A stretch of 39,577 nucleotides of DNA from Escherichia phage vB_EcoP_IMEP24: the sequence record MZ648215.1. One strand, 5' to 3'. The notes under the pieces were generated by a model, which was given only the letters and a program-made list of their open reading frames with translations, searched no databases and was not told where the DNA came from. Positions 29,185 to 39,577 of this stretch are shown here, piece after piece. Each line of letters opens with the position of its first letter. The first letter of the stretch is position 1. A program made the position numbers and the translations under genes.

Positions 29185-32100
29185 ATGGCGACTCGTGGTA
29201 TTCGCAATAACAATCCGGGTAACATCCGGGTAAGTAAGGACCAATGGGAAGGAATGACTGGAGATGATGGCGCATTCGTCACCTTCGATAGTCCAGAGTC
29301 TGGCGTCCGAGCTTTAGGTAAAAACCTGCTGTCCTACGGTCGCCAAGGTTATGACTCCATCGAGAAGATTATCAACCGATGGGCGCCTCCTAACGAGAAC
29401 GACACTAAGGCTTATATTGACTCAGTGGTGGCTGCAACTGGTATTCCAGCTACCCAGAGTCTCGACCTATCGGACCCTGACACCCTGTCTTCTCTGGCTC
29501 AAGCTATCAGCTTCCATGAGACAGGCTCCCGGTACGACCCTGAAGTCTATCAGCAGGGAGTCGCACGAGCACTCAATGGCATTAGCCCAAAGACTCCACC
29601 AGTAAGCGCTAACGTATTTGACGCACTCACGGAAGGACTCAAGGCTAAACCTAAAGTAGCTCTGGGCGAGAACCTTCCGACCGCTGCTGGTCTAAACATT
29701 GAGGGTCAAGCACCTGAAGCTCCCAACGAATCGTTCGGTGAGATGTTCTATAAGTCTACTGGCGAGACCATGCAGGAACGAGAGGATCGCTCTACGTGGT
29801 TCGGTTTTGGTGCGGCTACAGAAGCTGAAGTGAAGAACTCTATGGTCGGCGTGGCTGTCCGCGCTGGTCAGACCGAGGACTCACTTGATGTCATTGGCGA
29901 TGTGTTCAACCCGACCCGATGGAACAACCATAAGTGGTCTCGTGAGGAGCTGGACCAGATTCGTAACGCTGGGGTGCTGCCTCAGTATTACGGAGTCATT
30001 ACCGGTGGCTCACCTCAGAACCTGACCAAGCTTATCAACTTGGCGCTTGAGAACCAGAAGTTGGACCAAGAGAAGGCCAAGGCTGGGACTGGCGCTCAAC
30101 TGGCGGCTGGTGTGATTGGTGCTGGCGTGGACCCTCTGACCTACGTTCCTATTGCTGGGCAGGTAGGCAAAGGTGGGAAGCTAATCAACAAGATGTTCAC
30201 TGTGGCCGCTCAGTCTGGTGCTCTGGCTGGTGTGTCTGAGATGGCCCGTACCTCAGTAGCTGGGGGCGATGCTCATGTGGCTGAAGCTATCCTTGGTGGT
30301 GCTCTCTTCGGTGGTGGTATGACTGCTATCGCTGATGGACTTGGAAGAGCCTTAGGTCGTAACACTAACGAGTTCGCTGGTCCAGCAACACGTCTGGAAG
30401 CTCGTGAGACAGCCCGTAACGTTGATGGTCAGGACCTGTCTCGTCTCCCTATTCAGGAAGGTGAGCCGACCTTTACTCATCAAGGAGTTAAGTTCGCTGA
30501 TGTTCCGAATGAGCCGGGTAGTGTACGACTGGAAGATGGTTCAATCCTGATTGGTGAGAACCCTCTGAACCCTAAGACACGTCAAGTCTTTGACGAAGTG
30601 ATTGAGCCAGAACGTGCCGCTGCTGGTGTGAACCTTGGTGGACTTACCGAGATTGGCCTGAAGCTGCTTCGGTCTGAGAACCCTGAGATTCGTGGAGTAG
30701 CTGCTGACTTAGTGCGCTCACCGACTGGTATGCAGTCGGGGGCCTCAGGTAAAATCGGGACAACTGCGTCAGACGTGTTCGAGAGACTTCGTGCTGTGGA
30801 CCATCGGTTCTACAACGACATCGACGATGCGGTCACTGAGGCACTAAAAGACCCGTACTTCCAGACAGCATTCTGGCGAGACTCTGGCGCATTCCGTCAG
30901 GACATCTACCAGCGTGTGTCTATGGCTATCGAAGATGGTAGCGGAAACCTGAAGGCTGAACTGACTCCGGGAGAACTGAAAGTATATGACCTACTGAAGA
31001 ACCAGTTTGACGCCAAGCGTGAGATGATGGAGAATCCAGCTATGTTTGGTCGGACAGACGCTCAGTCTATCTTTCCGGGTAGCCGCTTCAAGGGAACCTA
31101 CGTCCCTCATGTGTACAGCAAACAGATGAAGGAGCTGTACATCAAGGAGCTTGGGAGTCCAGAGGCGCTACAGGAGGCCATCAAGAAGTCATGGTTGACC
31201 AGCTATGCGTCTCGACCTGAAGTCAAGAAACGCGTGGACGAGGCACTCTTAGAGGCTGACCCTACGTTGACTCCAGAGGGACTTGCTGCTGCGGTCGATA
31301 AGTACGCCAACGATAAGGCTTACGGTATCTCTCACACCGAGCAGTTCGAACGTTCATCCGTAATGGAAGAGAACATCAACGGTCTGGTTGGTCTGGAGAA
31401 CAACAGCTTCCTTGAGGCTCGTAACCTGTTCGATAGCGATATGTCAATCGTCCTACCTAATGGTCAGACCTTCAGTGTCAACAACCTGCGTGAGTGGGAC
31501 ATGGACAAGATTGTCCCGGCCTACAACCGTCGAGTTAATGGCGATATTGCTATCATGGCTGGTACAGGCAAAACCACGAAGGACATGAAGGACTTGGTTG
31601 AGACCATGATGAACAAGGCTGGGGATGACGGTAAGTTGAAAGGTGAAGTATCCACCTTACGTGACACCTTGAAGATTCTAACTGGTCGTGCTCGACGTGA
31701 TGGCGCTGATGATGCGGCCTTCGCTACCGTGATGCGCACAATGACAGACCTATCGTTCTTCGCTAAGAATGCCTACATGGGTGTTCAGAACTTAACGGAG
31801 ATTGGTGGTATGCTGGCTCGTGGCAACGTTCGTGCAATGCTTCATGGAGTCCCGATTTTCCGTGACCTAGCCTTCCGTAACAAGAAGGTAGGGGCCTCAG
31901 AGATTAAGGACCTGCACAATGTTATCTTCGGTAAGGAACTGGACGACTCAATCCGTCCGTCTAAACAAGATGTCATTGACCGTCTGCGATCCTATAGCGA
32001 CCTAGGTCGCGGGGCAGCTACAGCTCTGGGGACTGCCAAGTACTACACTGGTGAACTTGCAGCACGCTCTCCGCTCACTAAAGTCCTCAACGGTACGACC

Positions 32101-33072
32101 AACTACCTGTTAGATGCTGGACGTCAAGGATTCCTGTCCGACATCGTGGAGCATAGTCTGACTGGCAGTAAGCGTCGATTCGATGACCGCTGGCTGAAGA
32201 CCGCTGGTATCTCTGACGAGCAGTGGAAGGGCATTAAGTCCCTAATCCGTGAGTCAGTGACGCGTGGTCCAGACGGGAAGTACACCATCAAGGATAAGAA
32301 GGCGTTTAGTCAGGACCCAAGGGCTATGGACCTGTGGCGTATGGGTGACACCATCGCTGACGAAACGTTACTCCGGCCCCACAAGCTGTCAAACATGGAC
32401 GCCAAGGCTTATGGTCCTCTCGCTAAGACTGTCCTTCAGTTTAAGAACTTCGTCATCAAGTCCATCAATGGACGTACCATGCGAACCTTCTATAACGCCA
32501 CGAAGAACAACCGAGCGATGGACGCTGCTCTGTCCACTGTGATCTCTATGGGTCTTGCTGGTATCTACTACATGGCTCAGGCGCATGTCAAGGCTTACGC
32601 TATGCAGGATGGTCGAGACCGTGACTACCTCAAGCAAGCTCTGGACCCGACGATGATTGGATATGCAGCTCTATCACGTAGTTCACATCTTGGTGGACCA
32701 CTTGGGGTAGCTAACATTCTTGGGGGTATAGCTGGGTATGAGGACACTAAGATGCTCCGTTCGTCTATCCTACCTCGTTCTCCCACAGAGAAGCCTGAAC
32801 GTGCCATCGCGTATGGTGCAGCTACAAGTGACCCTGTGATGAATATTGTTGGTAACTTCTTGGAGCAGGTTCCAGCTTTCGGATATGCTGCTAACGTTGG
32901 CGCTTCGGCTTACAACTTGGCTGGATACCTCAAGGCCGATACTCGTGTCAACGAGCGTGACTACATGACCGGGATGTATAATACGTTCCGTGAACTGGTT
33001 CCTAACGACCCAATTACCCAGAAGCTGTTACTTGGAACGTTTGAGGAGCAAGGTATCCACATCAAGGACTAA
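29185..33072 (+). CDS. Internal virion protein D (T7 gene 16), with N-terminal domain unlike the T7 transglycosylase domain
   Basis: From about aa 190 on collinear with T7 gp16 (TGGSPxNL, AGxIGAGVDPLxYVP, RLEARETARN, VRSPTGMQSGASGK, ENPAxFG, GTYVPHVY, YGISHxxQF, GLxxNSFLEARNLFDSD, RRVNGDIAIMxxTGKTTK); N-terminal ~130 aa (MATRGIRNNNPGNIR...) diverge. Confidence 0.95.
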   Translation: MATRGIRNNNPGNIRVSKDQWEGMTGDDGAFVTFDSPESGVRALGKNLLSYGRQGYDSIEKIINRWAPPNENDTKAYIDSVVAATGIPATQSLDLSDPDTLSSLAQAISFHETGSRYDPEVYQQGVARALNGISPKTPPVSANVFDALTEGLKAKPKVALGENLPTAAGLNIEGQAPEAPNESFGEMFYKSTGETMQEREDRSTWFGFGAATEAEVKNSMVGVAVRAGQTEDSLDVIGDVFNPTRWNNHKWSREELDQIRNAGVLPQYYGVITGGSPQNLTKLINLALENQKLDQEKAKAGTGAQLAAGVIGAGVDPLTYVPIAGQVGKGGKLINKMFTVAAQSGALAGVSEMARTSVAGGDAHVAEAILGGALFGGGMTAIADGLGRALGRNTNEFAGPATRLEARETARNVDGQDLSRLPIQEGEPTFTHQGVKFADVPNEPGSVRLEDGSILIGENPLNPKTRQVFDEVIEPERAAAGVNLGGLTEIGLKLLRSENPEIRGVAADLVRSPTGMQSGASGKIGTTASDVFERLRAVDHRFYNDIDDAVTEALKDPYFQTAFWRDSGAFRQDIYQRVSMAIEDGSGNLKAELTPGELKVYDLLKNQFDAKREMMENPAMFGRTDAQSIFPGSRFKGTYVPHVYSKQMKELYIKELGSPEALQEAIKKSWLTSYASRPEVKKRVDEALLEADPTLTPEGLAAAVDKYANDKAYGISHTEQFERSSVMEENINGLVGLENNSFLEARNLFDSDMSIVLPNGQTFSVNNLREWDMDKIVPAYNRRVNGDIAIMAGTGKTTKDMKDLVETMMNKAGDDGKLKGEVSTLRDTLKILTGRARRDGADDAAFATVMRTMTDLSFFAKNAYMGVQNLTEIGGMLARGNVRAMLHGVPIFRDLAFRNKKVGASEIKDLHNVIFGKELDDSIRPSKQDVIDRLRSYSDLGRGAATALGTAKYYTGELAARSPLTKVLNGTTNYLLDAGRQGFLSDIVEHSLTGSKRRFDDRWLKTAGISDEQWKGIKSLIRESVTRGPDGKYTIKDKKAFSQDPRAMDLWRMGDTIADETLLRPHKLSNMDAKAYGPLAKTVLQFKNFVIKSINGRTMRTFYNATKNNRAMDAALSTVISMGLAGIYYMAQAHVKAYAMQDGRDRDYLKQALDPTMIGYAALSRSSHLGGPLGVANILGGIAGYEDTKMLRSSILPRSPTEKPERAIAYGAATSDPVMNIVGNFLEQVPAFGYAANVGASAYNLAGYLKADTRVNERDYMTGMYNTFRELVPNDPITQKLLLGTFEEQGIHIKD

Positions 33073-33136: not shown

Positions 33137-35320
33137 ATGTCCACGATTACACAATTCCCTTCAGGAAACACTCAGTACAGGATTGAGTTCGACTACCTAG
33201 CCAGAACGTTTGTTGTTGTTACGCTGGTGAATAGCTATAACCCTACCATGAACCGTGTACTGGAAGTTGGTCGAGATTACCGATTCCTTAATCCAACGAT
33301 GATTGAGATGTTGGTTGACCAATCAGGTTTCGACATCGTTCGTATTCACCGTCAGACTGGAACTGACTTAGTGGTAGACTTCAGGAATGGCTCAGTGTTG
33401 ACAGCTAGTGACCTGACCAATGCAGAGCTTCAGGCTATCCATATTGCAGAAGAAGGTCGAGACCAAACGGTTGACTTAGCGAAGGAATATGCCGATGCTG
33501 CTGGTAGCTCTGCTGGCAACGCTAAGGATAGCGAGGACGAAGCACGACGAATCGCTGCGAGTATCCAGGCAGCTGGTAAAATTGGTTATATTACCCGTCG
33601 CTCCTTCGAGAAAGGCTTCAACGTTACAACATGGAACGAGGCCCTGCTATGGGAAGAGGATGGTGATTATTACCGCTGGGATGGTACGCTTCCAAAGAAC
33701 GTTCCTGCTGGTTCAACTCCTGAATCATCTGGTGGTATTGGGCTAGGTGCGTGGGTTAGTGTTGGTGATGCTTCATTACGATCGGCTCTACAGGCAGAAG
33801 ATGGTGCAAAAAATATTGGCTCTGGTAAAAGAAAGCTGATTGATAATTTGAATGACATTAAACACAGTGGTGATTATTCAACTTTACAACAGGCGATTAA
33901 TGATACCACCTCAAGGGGTCGGGTTCTTGTTTCTCCAGGCGTATATAGCGAAAGCGTTTCAACCGGCAATGCTGACATTGAGGGTTCTGGTTATGCATCT
34001 TTATTAAAAACAGGGAGTGAAGATTATGCAATTAAAGTATTACAATCAGTGCCACACTGGGAGCGTCGAAGTATTTCAAAAATAAGCCTACAAGGAACAG
34101 CAACACCTAATTCCGTGGGGGTGCTATATGACCCGGATGATATGCTCTCTGGGAGATGGGATATCAGTTATGTAGGTATGGCTGACTTTGGTGTTTGTAT
34201 TAAAAAGCCAACTGGCAATATAGGTAATACATATCAAACTGTTAACTTCAGAGCTTCTGAGTATGGGTATCGTGCTGAAAGCGTGACTGGCATGCATTCT
34301 GGCTGCGATACATTTCGTGACTGTTATTTCCAAGGGATATCCAAATACTGTATTGATATAGTGAATGCTCAAGATGGCGGTGGATCTGTGCAAATTCAAG
34401 ATAGCATCATGGAGCAATGCACTGGTGGTGGCATAAGGATTGACTATAATAACATTGTTCCTTATACACCTATTGTTATACGAAACGTATGGTTTGAACT
34501 CATTGCTACGGCATCTACCATTGACCGCGATGGTTCTGAAGAAGTTCCGAGACAGGTTAAATTAATAAACACACCACAGGCATACGTTGAAGAGTCATAC
34601 TTAACTAATATTGAATTAATTAACTCAAACTTAATTGCGCGTAACTGTCGAATTGACACTGTTAGTTCGAATATTTACAGCATGAACGTTGACGCTAATA
34701 GTTCATTTATTGTTGAGAATCTTTATGCAGGGGGGGAAGTTGGCGGAGTCCCGATTATTAAAAGCGTTGCATCTCAATCTGGATTATTTGCGAGTAGTAA
34801 CTTAAGTTTGCGTGGAACTCCCACGGTGCAAGCTATCAAGGGGGCCATGGGGTATCATGGCACTGTACGTGCAGCAGATTTATATTCAGGGGTTGTTGGT
34901 TCTACTACGTGGACATTCCCGGGCACGGAAGAAGTAACAGCAAACTGTGTAGAAGATGGAGTGGCAATTGGTTATGGTTGTGCGGAAGTATCAATCAATG
35001 CTGGGTCATCACAGTTAAGTTCAGAAATTGCCACAATAACTGCCGGGAAGTGGTATGTATGGGGGGTTAACGCTAAACTTGTTTCTGGGACAGGAAACTT
35101 TAGATTCTCAGAATATATTTCAGCAGGTGTTATCTATACACAAGACGGCAAATGGACAAGCACTTTCGGTATTGGAAAAGCGCAATCATCAGGAACAATT
35201 CGATTGTATCTTACTGCACAAACTGACACCGTTATTAGATTGCAAAACTTTTTTATTGTTGAGTTCAATACGGAGGCTGATGCTTTGGCATTTTGTAATG
35301 CGAGAGTTGCAATAGGTTAA
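33137..35320 (+). CDS. Tail fibre / tailspike (gene 17): T7-like N-terminal anchor plus probable beta-helix receptor-binding/depolymerase-type domain
   Basis: N-terminal ~150 aa match T7 gp17 anchor (FxYLARxFVVVTL, DYRF, VDFxxGSxLxAxDL, QxxHxAEExRD); remainder unrelated to T7 fibre and AT-richer. Confidence 0.9.
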   Translation: MSTITQFPSGNTQYRIEFDYLARTFVVVTLVNSYNPTMNRVLEVGRDYRFLNPTMIEMLVDQSGFDIVRIHRQTGTDLVVDFRNGSVLTASDLTNAELQAIHIAEEGRDQTVDLAKEYADAAGSSAGNAKDSEDEARRIAASIQAAGKIGYITRRSFEKGFNVTTWNEALLWEEDGDYYRWDGTLPKNVPAGSTPESSGGIGLGAWVSVGDASLRSALQAEDGAKNIGSGKRKLIDNLNDIKHSGDYSTLQQAINDTTSRGRVLVSPGVYSESVSTGNADIEGSGYASLLKTGSEDYAIKVLQSVPHWERRSISKISLQGTATPNSVGVLYDPDDMLSGRWDISYVGMADFGVCIKKPTGNIGNTYQTVNFRASEYGYRAESVTGMHSGCDTFRDCYFQGISKYCIDIVNAQDGGGSVQIQDSIMEQCTGGGIRIDYNNIVPYTPIVIRNVWFELIATASTIDRDGSEEVPRQVKLINTPQAYVEESYLTNIELINSNLIARNCRIDTVSSNIYSMNVDANSSFIVENLYAGGEVGGVPIIKSVASQSGLFASSNLSLRGTPTVQAIKGAMGYHGTVRAADLYSGVVGSTTWTFPGTEEVTANCVEDGVAIGYGCAEVSINAGSSQLSSEIATITAGKWYVWGVNAKLVSGTGNFRFSEYISAGVIYTQDGKWTSTFGIGKAQSSGTIRLYLTAQTDTVIRLQNFFIVEFNTEADALAFCNARVAIG

Positions 35321-35332
35321 CTTGACATCCTC

Positions 35333-35357
35333 CACGCCCTAAAGGGCGGGGCTTTTC
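35333..35357 (+). terminator. Putative weak rho-independent terminator after gene 17
   Basis: CGCCC-TAAA-GGGCG hairpin followed by GCTTTTC; only four T. Confidence 0.4.
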
Positions 35358-35370
35358 GGATAATTATTGA

Positions 35371-35457
35371 TCAGAACGGGATATCGTCATCGAAGTCCAT
35401 TGGCGGCTCATTACCTCCTTGTGGGCTTTGTTGTTTTGGTGGCTGATGTTGTCGTTG
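35371..35457 (-). pseudogene. Fragment homologous to the 3' end of a bacterial ssb gene (SSB C-terminal tail), antisense to phage genes
   Basis: Minus-strand translation QRQHQPPKQQSPQGGNEPPMDFDDDIPF-stop; last 13 residues equal the recalled E. coli SSB C-terminus (SNEPPMDFDDDIPF); in-frame stop directly upstream, no OB-fold region. Confidence 0.6.
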
Positions 35458-35693
35458 CTAAAAACCATCAAATATCAAAGGCTCTGATGGTTCCCATCTC
35501 TTTACTCTGACTACTGATGACGTAACTGTTAAAGACGTTAATGTGGTTACGACCCTTACTGCTGCCTCTGTGCCATTGGAGTCCTGAACCGGGTAGAGGA
35601 TCGAATGTTGTGGAGGTAGAGGCGAACTACACGCTGACCAACGTATGGTAACAACTTTGGGTCACGGACGACCCGCTTTAAACTGGAGGTTTT

Positions 35694-35888
35694 ATGATTG
35701 AGTTAGACTTCAAGAATGAGGTCCTTAAAGCCTCTCCTATCGTCGGGACCGCTGCGGCTGATGGTGCCAGTCGGTTCTTCTTCGGACTTACACTGAACGA
35801 ATGGTTCTACGTTGCAGCTATCGCGTACACCGTTGTCCAGATTGGTGTGCTAGTCTACAAAACGATTAAAGGAGGTGGTAAAACATGA
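35694..35888 (+). CDS. Class II holin (T7 gene 17.5)
   Basis: LDFxNExxKAxPIVGT, FFGLxLNEWFYVAAIAYTVVQIG matches T7 gp17.5; RBS ggagg. Confidence 0.92.
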   Translation: MIELDFKNEVLKASPIVGTAAADGASRFFFGLTLNEWFYVAAIAYTVVQIGVLVYKTIKGGGKT

Positions 35889-36190: not shown

Positions 36191-36204
36191 CATTAGGAGG
36201 GTTT

Positions 36205-36480
36205 ATGACTAAGATAATGGAACGCAGAGCTGCCTATTATAAGCAGGTATACAAGGTGGACTTACAGACTCTAATTGGTATTCTAAAAGAGCAGGGAGGC
36301 TATGAGATATGTGGAAAGAGTATCTCTTTTGAAGGTGCAAAGGTAACAGCTCGCGTGGACCACTGCCACTCTACTGGAGCTATACGTGGTATTATATGCA
36401 ATAGGTGTAATCAGGCACTTGGTATGTTTGGAGATAACGTAGAGGGCATCTACAAGCTCTTAGCATACCTAGGCAAATAG
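36205..36480 (+). CDS. Endonuclease VII-like HNH nuclease (91 aa)
   Basis: DHCHSTGAIRGIICNRCNQALGMFGDN is the His-Me finger motif of the T4 endo VII family (DHDH..G.VRGLLC..CN..G); RBS taggaggg. Confidence 0.75.
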   Translation: MTKIMERRAAYYKQVYKVDLQTLIGILKEQGGYEICGKSISFEGAKVTARVDHCHSTGAIRGIICNRCNQALGMFGDNVEGIYKLLAYLGK

Positions 36481-39393: not shown

Positions 39394-39577
39394 TCTCACA
39401 CTTCAAGAACCTCAAGTCTCCCCCATAGGCCCTCTTTCAGTCCAGACCAAGGGTGGCCCACCTCCAGTCTATCATAGGGTTGGACCGGCTGTCAATATCT
39501 CAAGTCAACGATTGGTCATGACTATCGGTGGTGGTGGTGACGATAGGTTGGGACTATTGGTCTGTCTCTGAGTCTTT
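39394..39577. repeat. Right direct terminal repeat (184 bp)
   Basis: Identical to 1..184. Confidence 0.9.

Follow-up and report, generated by a model that had tools for sequence, protein, structure and literature searches.

Gene 17 of Escherichia phage vB_EcoP_IMEP24 (sequence record MZ648215.1) raises the question of whether the C-terminal part of its tailspike is native to the phage lineage and, if it is not, which fold it adopts, which receptor it may serve and how it came to stand behind the N-terminal part. The whole stretch of DNA that was analyzed, hereafter the window, comprises 39,577 nucleotides (nt), and its list of open reading frames (ORFs) gives gene 17 as a plus-strand frame, 33137..35320, encoding a tailspike of 727 amino acids (aa) that is 100% identical to UCR92084.1, "tail fibers protein [Escherichia phage vB_EcoP_IMEP24]". 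Gene 17 is a chimera, with its mosaic boundary at residues 215/216. On the evidence summarized below, we consider it very probable that a horizontally acquired beta-helix tailspike module has been fused in this gene to a conserved anchor.

Composition, junction and predicted fold of gene 17

A low-GC block at 33781..35347 (plus strand; GC 0.41), which takes in module residues 216-727 together with the stop codon and a 3' flank of 27 nt, was delimited by blastn matches to P22-like prophage tailspikes, GC content and codon usage. It matched the tailspike gene of one such prophage (L001) at 93.2% over 1,567 nt and that of a second P22-type copy (L010) at 94.5%, with the same end points and with the divergence evenly spread. 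The L001 copy of the module has the same low GC (0.41); this prophage carries, in this order, genes for Arc, Mnt, antirepressor, tailspike and integrase, and it adjoins yfdC-mlaA-fadL of E. coli, the chromosomal region that holds tRNA-Arg. In phage databases, the DNA of the anchor (gene nt 1-642/653, reaching to about 33778-33789 of the window) matched 165 phage records by megablast, mostly at 95-98%, and a megablast of the C-terminal 1.57 kb of the gene against 50,697 phage records gave no match. Homology to the phage backbone stops at 33775-33804 and restarts at 35600-35608 in two Kayfunaviruses or at 35411 in phage KE18, and sister Kayfunaviruses that are ~95% identical on either side have unrelated sequence, or sequence of 39% protein identity, at the module. 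A horizontally swapped module had been proposed from the sequence alone, and both the identity to P22-like prophage tailspikes and the position of the break, at the predicted coordinate, support it.

The composition of the gene changes at the same place. The interval 33780-35320 has a GC content of 0.411 versus 0.499 for the whole window and, compared to all 1,541-nt windows of the genome (mean 0.5006, standard deviation (SD) 0.023), lies ~3.9 SD low and is essentially the genome minimum (0.410, for the window starting at 33791). The next-lowest non-overlapping window has a GC of 0.455; this second-lowest stretch is 171-1711, at the left end of the genome. Within gene 17, the maximum-likelihood GC change-point falls at 33808 (0.484 to 0.408), in agreement with the AT-richness that the sequence-only reading had placed from about 33780 onward, and uniform composition was not found; the AT-rich run quoted there as an example was located at 34001-34051 with zero mismatches. 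The different codon choice claimed for this part was also recovered: GC at third codon positions (GC3) falls from 0.423 in the N-terminal part to 0.305 in the C-terminal part and lies at 0.48-0.67 in other genes. Scored against the codon usage of those genes, the C-terminal part has a synonymous-codon log-likelihood of -1.329, versus -1.053 +/- 0.039 for 513-codon chunks of those genes (z = -7.0). With regard to the Gly/Asn/Ser-rich, repetitive character that had been described, the enrichment exists and is modest (26.7% versus 18.3% in other proteins), but repetition is undetectable in the sequence of gene 17, in which Tandem Repeats Finder reported none and protein self-comparison gave only the trivial match. 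According to the structural model, the periodicity of the module is at the level of the fold only.

The conserved Kayfunavirus anchor module covers aa 1-214 (33137..33778, plus strand; ending ...GAWVSVGDASLR), as delimited by Pfam, megablast and a PDB match. It consists of a T7-tail N-terminal domain (aa 10-115, 33164-33481; PF03906, E 4.9e-16), a linker of about aa 116-150 and a Tail_spike_N domain (aa 151-211, 33587-33769; PF18668, E 1.9e-20), the last of which is the N-terminal domain of the tailspike proteins (TSPs) of phage CBA120. It had been suggested that the first ~150 aa match the T7 fibre anchor; the T7-tail domain is real, but the conserved part is actually 214 aa long and includes Tail_spike_N. 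The kinship with the T7 gp17 anchor is supported by PF03906 and by the T7 gp17 chains 7boz, 8dsp and 8e4g, which match aa 6-116 only (E 1e-16 to 1e-17); since they stop at aa 116, no homology to the T7 gp17 shaft or tip was found in the C-terminal part. The alignment with a solved chain, 9vvr_A, spans aa 1-290, with near-identity as far as about aa 214. At the protein level the junction reads ...GAWVSVGDASLR followed by SALQAEDGAKNIGSGKRKLIDNLNDIK..., with the break between residues 215 and 216 (...DASLR/SALQ...).

An AlphaFold2 model of the module, built with 59 homologues, reached a mean predicted local distance difference test score (pLDDT) of 93.1 and a predicted template modeling score (pTM) of 0.89, and is nearly all beta. 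In this model, an N-terminal linker and cap (aa 216-258, SALQAEDGAKNIGSGKRKLIDNLNDIKHSGDYSTLQQAIN..., 33782..33910), placed by junction alignments and DSSP, would form short helices, with a pLDDT of 68-79 for model residues 1-30. It is followed by a predicted right-handed parallel beta-helix domain of ~11 coils and 34 short strands (~aa 259-569, 33911..34843) and by a predicted C-terminal beta-sandwich with a short terminal helix (aa 572-727, 34850..35317), all on the plus strand. The sandwich has a jelly-roll topology resembling that of carbohydrate-binding modules (CBMs) of the CBM4/16/22 type, to which its identity is 8-17%; it could also serve trimer assembly instead of sugar binding. The best Foldseek matches were tailspike depolymerases, namely K2-2 TSP, Kp7 gp52, CBA120 TSP4 and the tailspikes of Sf6, HK620 and P22. 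Thus, structure prediction bears out the right-handed beta-helix that had been expected, and a T7-like fibre tip was not found in the model. By analogy with its relatives 9vvr and 9lna and with the CBA120 TSPs, the protein is probably a homotrimer.

Among the 59 homologues, H387 and E454 are invariant (100%), E426 and D507 are conserved at 92% and D519 at 97%, and R340, K357, R472, R505 and the motif GNIGN at 360-364 are conserved at >=92% (i.e., at least 92%); D391 and E485 are further family-conserved residues of the beta-helix. The acidic residues E426, E454, D507 and D519 are candidates for catalysis, with E426 and E454 as the most likely, putative catalytic carboxylates. These two are 28 residues apart, approximately one coil, which is close to the spacing of the catalytic pairs in Sf6, HK620 and P22. 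The helix has an identity of only 9-14%, with no sequence relationship, to those of CBA120 TSP2/TSP4, Sf6, HK620, P22, Klebsiella K2-2 TSP and KP32gp38, and catalytic residues are therefore not transferable from these characterized tailspikes.

Relatives of the module and the flanks of the imported block

A word-indexed search returned 92 homologues of the module, and an exhaustive search of 1.84 billion representatives yielded 279 clusters at 50% identity with E <= 1e-3, including 63 with E <= 1e-30. Most of the listed matches cover the full unit of beta-helix and sandwich, behind N-termini that differ greatly in length. Close copies (72-100% aa identity) are found behind four different virion adaptors: (i) the T7-type anchor, in IMEP24 and in three other contigs of ~39 kb that encode the same 727-aa protein at 99.5-99.9%; (ii) the P22 head-binding domain PF09008, in >20 E. 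coli prophage proteins at 91-94% aa identity; (iii) a siphovirus adaptor in a tape-measure context (L008, 6526-7919), which matches 33917-35310 of the window at 92.8% nt identity; and (iv) an SU10-like podovirus adaptor with Tail_spike_N (L009, 6360-7247), which matches 33658-34548 at 89.2%. The module is internally mosaic, as the L009 match stops at 34548 and the L008 match begins at 33917, which implies putative further breakpoints near aa 261 and aa 471 within the receptor-binding module. For this receptor-binding family of 279 clusters, which lacks a Pfam model as well as a solved structure, a specificity or chemistry that has not been described before is conceivable.

More distant relatives (35-40% identity) include gp17 of LM33_P1, which occupies the same gene position, proteins of E. 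coli siphoviruses of 44-45 kb such as Golestan and 22664BS2 (Kagunavirus), and proteins of the ~72-76 kb phages Bp4, ES17 and myPSH1131; several phages with such relatives, across genera, were isolated on O25b-positive strains. The module itself is present in >20 draft E. coli assemblies and was found only in draft or read-archive assemblies. No relative was detected in a scan of IMG/VR viral contigs, and a metagenome scan gave only one 2.5-kb P22-type contig.

The closest known system is a set of P22-like (Lederbergvirus-type) prophage tailspikes (for example WP_244586523.1 and WP_251000203.1; L001, L010), whose module shows 91-94% protein and 93-94.5% DNA identity and has the same low GC; the 645-aa homologues of this type that occur in draft assemblies also include WP_249531446.1 and HFV6140473.1; the P22-type receptor-binding domain is shared with >20 E. 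coli P22-type prophage tailspikes. They differ from IMEP24 in their PF09008 N-terminus (which IMEP24 gp17 lacks and its nearest module relatives, among them P0002, possess), their temperate lifestyle and their location beside tRNA-Arg. With the P22, Sf6 and HK620 enzymes as such, the resemblance is confined to the fold, at 10-12% identity. A second group, comprising LM33_P1 gp17 and the other Kayfunavirus tailspikes of phrog_27367 (22664BS1 and HC12/13, among others), has the same backbone, an anchor 97.7% identical in DNA, the same last residues before the junction (...VGDASLR) and the same module family. The gene 17 product matched the phrog_27367 profile at E 1.2e-221 over aa 1-726, and the module by itself at E 3.5e-144. 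Despite their almost equal length (726 aa for LM33_P1 gp17 versus 727 aa), the LM33_P1 module shows only ~39% protein identity to that of IMEP24 and no similarity at the DNA level. At that identity a transfer of O25b specificity is unjustified, and the receptor specificities of the two phages therefore probably differ; to judge from the title of a 2016 report by Dufour et al., LM33_P1 is reportedly associated with O25b. The type Kayfunavirus tailspike, K1F gp17, has a module made of a sialidase beta-propeller with a cleaved C-terminal chaperone. In gene 17, neither a sialidase beta-propeller nor a Peptidase_S74 chaperone was found, and IMEP24 differs from K1F in having a predicted beta-helix and CBM-like sandwich, with no Pfam match and no chaperone domain detected in the C-terminal part. 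The overall design of the K1F endosialidase is the same, i.e., a T7-type anchor followed by an exchangeable polysaccharide-degrading module (PMC10408124).

Both ends of the block offer hints as to how it may have moved. At the left junction, P22-type genes and Kayfunaviruses have no extended homology, only a 5-nt GATGC match 12 nt upstream. Because the SU10-like phage L009 is collinear across the junction (VGDTSLRTALQAEDGAKNIGSG) and the siphoviruses L006 and L007 have in common with IMEP24 the Tail_spike_N coding stretch 33661-33775 (75-77%), recombination could plausibly have used the end of Tail_spike_N as its homologous left arm. In KE18 (L005, Salmonella phage vB_STmST19_KE18; 1480-3495, 3501-3811), gene 17 diverges earlier, after ...VSVGD, at about 33769.

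Downstream of the stop codon lies a GC-rich hairpin (35331..35357, plus strand; stem CGCCC, loop TAAA, stem GGGCG, extended, then CTTTTC) with an RNA folding energy of -14.3 kcal/mol and a z of only -1.5. It occupies the position of the tailspike/ssb terminator in siphoviruses, and phage ASO78B has an annotated bidirectional terminator there. A consensus terminator scan made no call on this hairpin; in view of this and of its z value, a firm terminator assignment was dropped, and it is described here as terminator-like only. Beyond it, on the minus strand, translation revealed a fossil 3' end of an ssb gene (35371..35457; 28 codons, ...QQSPQGGNEPPMDFDDDIPF and stop, or ...GGNEPPMDFDDDIPF and stop), which is closed upstream by a stop codon. 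The remnant matches the 3' ends of annotated full-length ssb genes of siphoviruses of 45-47 kb and also E. coli ssb, and the native order is seen in ASO78B (tail fibre, bidirectional terminator, convergent ssb). Truncated remnants follow the tailspike gene in the Buchananvirus Sa179lw and, in a P22-like E. coli prophage (L004), separate that gene from intS; a shorter piece occurs in KE18. The return to the Kayfunavirus backbone spans 35411..35693 (plus strand): KE18 matches from 35411 (91.4%), and Baskent and LM33_P1 only from ~35600-35608 (blastn). In a five-way alignment, IMEP24 and KE18 have the same shortened distal end of the remnant (...GTTGCT/AAAACC...), and the proximal part, DIPF tip and hairpin included, is present in IMEP24 and not in KE18. 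Because of this comparison with KE18, the right-hand crossover appears to lie within the conserved ~45-nt core of the remnant, roughly 35411-35458 and ~100 nt past the stop codon, and the imported segment would measure about 1.63-1.68 kb. The sequences also suggest that the KE18 lineage already carried the distal remnant, perhaps from an earlier cassette exchange in the same lineage.

Exchange of receptor-binding domains behind genus-specific anchors has been described for Kayfuna-, Kaguna-, Gamaleya-, Kutter-, Lederberg- and Uetakeviruses, with conserved flanking motifs as proposed recombination hotspots (Virol J 2023, PMC10408124), and IMEP24 is a well-resolved, ordinary case of this documented tailspike module exchange. 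Two details go slightly beyond that work, in which the flanking motifs were reported to be absent from Lederbergvirus prophages and ssb is not mentioned (0 occurrences; PMC10408124): the downstream arm is recognizable here as an ssb 3' remnant, and the remnant is also present in a P22-like prophage, L004. A tentative extension, which we regard as somewhat doubtful, is that the module travels as a cassette between two portable homology arms, the end of Tail_spike_N and the terminator/ssb fossil, which would mark the loci in Buchananvirus, P22-like prophages and Kayfunaviruses, the fossil perhaps deriving from siphoviruses with a full-length ssb convergent to the tailspike gene. If true, the cassette would record a transfer route linking the tailspike pools of temperate prophages with virulent T7-like phages, two groups between which the published motif analysis reported no connection (PMC10408124). 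In addition, the junction at aa 215/216 and the downstream ssb remnant may provide splice points for grafting receptor-binding modules onto a Kayfunavirus chassis.

Receptor, donor and rival explanations

The tailspikes of T7, K1F and P22 type are trimers held on the tail by an N-terminal anchor, and the beta-helix of such tailspikes binds and cleaves surface polysaccharide, which lets the short tail get to the outer membrane. If T7 and K1F are taken as a guide, the N-terminal 214 residues of gp17 would be the lineage's own virion-attachment module, plugging the trimer into the tail, and residues 216-727 an acquired receptor-binding module, with the beta-helix followed by the CBM-like sandwich. 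This module most likely binds and cleaves an E. coli surface polysaccharide, by which the short-tailed virion would gain the outer membrane. The block probably entered the Kayfunavirus backbone by recombination, with its left end at the last codons of Tail_spike_N and its right end inside the ssb remnant.

That the receptor is a polysaccharide had been predicted by the sequence-only reading. The fold, the CBM-like C-terminal domain and the company of the module in P22-like prophage tailspikes support this indirectly, and we infer a polysaccharide receptor on this basis. Its chemical class is somewhat less certain: O-antigen is the probable substrate by analogy, because single-tailspike P22-like prophages supply the closest homologues and the distant relatives track O25b hosts. 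In P22-like prophages, tailspike type is reported to track host O-type (PMC10408124). The serogroup is probably uncommon, since none of 5,426 complete E. coli genomes contains the module. For the mechanism, the odds of a hydrolase are about even. As the module would bind and cleave the surface polysaccharide, it would also set the host range, which is predicted to depend on a single surface polysaccharide, that of an uncommon type of E. coli, and not on rough lipopolysaccharide (LPS), the receptor of T7. Such a prediction matters for choosing and engineering therapeutic and diagnostic phages, and the near-identical prophage module means that the serogroup of the strains that bear it could reveal the receptor without wet-lab work.

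Three other explanations deserve consideration. The same architecture might act on a capsular (K-antigen) or other exopolysaccharide, possibly as a lyase. This is an unlikely alternative, given that O-antigen specificity prevails among characterized tailspikes of P22-like phages and in the correlations of prophage and host described in PMC10408124, that the ~39% relatives occur in phages from O25b-positive strains across genera, and that gene 17 has no sialidase beta-propeller and, with no Pfam match on its C-terminal part, no Peptidase_S74 chaperone domain. In its favor, the tail fibre protein of ES17, a ~38% relative, was reported to bind heparan sulfate and was modeled by its authors on K5 capsule lyase (PMC7885116), which makes capsule specificity and a lyase mechanism conceivable. 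The module could instead be a non-catalytic adhesin that binds a glycan, or even a protein receptor, without cleavage, as some of its structural neighbors do; the conserved carboxylates and histidine on the helix (H387, E454, E426, D507, D519) are typical of active tailspikes and, together with the one-coil spacing of E426 and E454, make this quite improbable.

An even more remote alternative is that no horizontal transfer took place and that the AT-richness and odd codons are by-products of the amino acid composition of a fast-evolving native C-terminus. The module does contain much Ile, Asn, Ser and Tyr but little Lys and Glu, which shifts its composition somewhat. However, GC3, which is largely independent of amino acid content, drops to 0.305; the DNA is 93-94.5% identical, with sharp ends, to genes of unrelated temperate prophages; and sister Kayfunaviruses that are ~95% identical on both sides have unrelated or 39% protein sequence here, so that this explanation is extremely improbable. 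An escape through chimeric assembly is also unlikely, as >20 independent E. coli records carry the prophage matches.

Several observations weigh against the preferred reading of an acquired, polysaccharide-degrading tailspike module, or at least limit it. The module (aa 215-727) has no Pfam match even at E <= 10 and none in NCBIfam; the curated beta-helix signatures PF13229 (Beta_helix) and PF12708 (Pectate_lyase_3) are absent from it, and one or the other occurs in just a few distant homologues. Searches of the PDB by sequence and by profile found no sequence-related solved structure, the profile matches having arisen only through P22 head-binding columns, so the fold rests on prediction. The structural neighbors of the beta-helix include not only hydrolases but also lyases, epimerases and non-enzymatic adhesins, and the reported heparan sulfate binding of the ES17 relative leaves room for a capsule-type substrate. 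Megablast of the module against the 5,426 complete RefSeq E. coli genomes gave no match, and no serogroup could be linked to it. A literature search on IMEP24 found only a taxonomy listing by the ICTV (the international body for virus taxonomy), with no activity, receptor or host datum, and nothing usable was found in the literature searched on the receptor of LM33_P1 Gp17. With respect to origin, the IMEP24 module lies outside the sampled P22-type diversity (91.4-94.3% identity, versus a median of 96.1% among the copies), and the P22-type copies with an IMEP24-like module lack the ssb remnant.

Because of this outgroup position and the missing remnant, the P22-type copies are, as far as the sequences indicate, relatives ("cousins") of the donor and not the donor. 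A P22-like prophage as the direct donor, which was considered, is weakened by both points as well as by the lack of extended homology at the left junction. A protein that combines Tail_spike_N with the module (P0108, 650 aa, on a 47.9-kb contig) represents a candidate donor type.

The genome around gene 17

The window is a complete linear T7-like genome (Studiervirinae, Kayfunavirus-type), since it has exact direct terminal repeats of 184 bp (1-184 and 39394-39577) and its final 10.6 kb are ~95% identical, over ~80% of their length, to E. coli and Salmonella Kayfunavirus genomes. The closest overall relatives of the IMEP24 genome are Salmonella Kayfunaviruses. Gene 17 occupies the position expected of a T7-type tail gene, between a gp16-like internal virion protein (29185-33072) and a T7-type holin (35694-35888, PF10746) that is followed by the small terminase subunit, and the annotated synteny around it matches that in Baskent_phicoli_1 and LM33_P1.

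Farther downstream, between the genes for the small terminase subunit and Rz-like proteins, a 91-aa ORF (36205-36480, plus strand) contains a Recombination endonuclease VII domain (PF02945, E 1.2e-14). The stretch 36195-36480 has no counterpart in Baskent_phicoli_1 or LM33_P1 and therefore looks like a homing-endonuclease-type insertion. At the opposite end of the genome, directly inside the left terminal repeat, a tandem array at 200-278 consists of 5.3 perfect copies of the 15-nt unit AGTCCAACAACCTAC.

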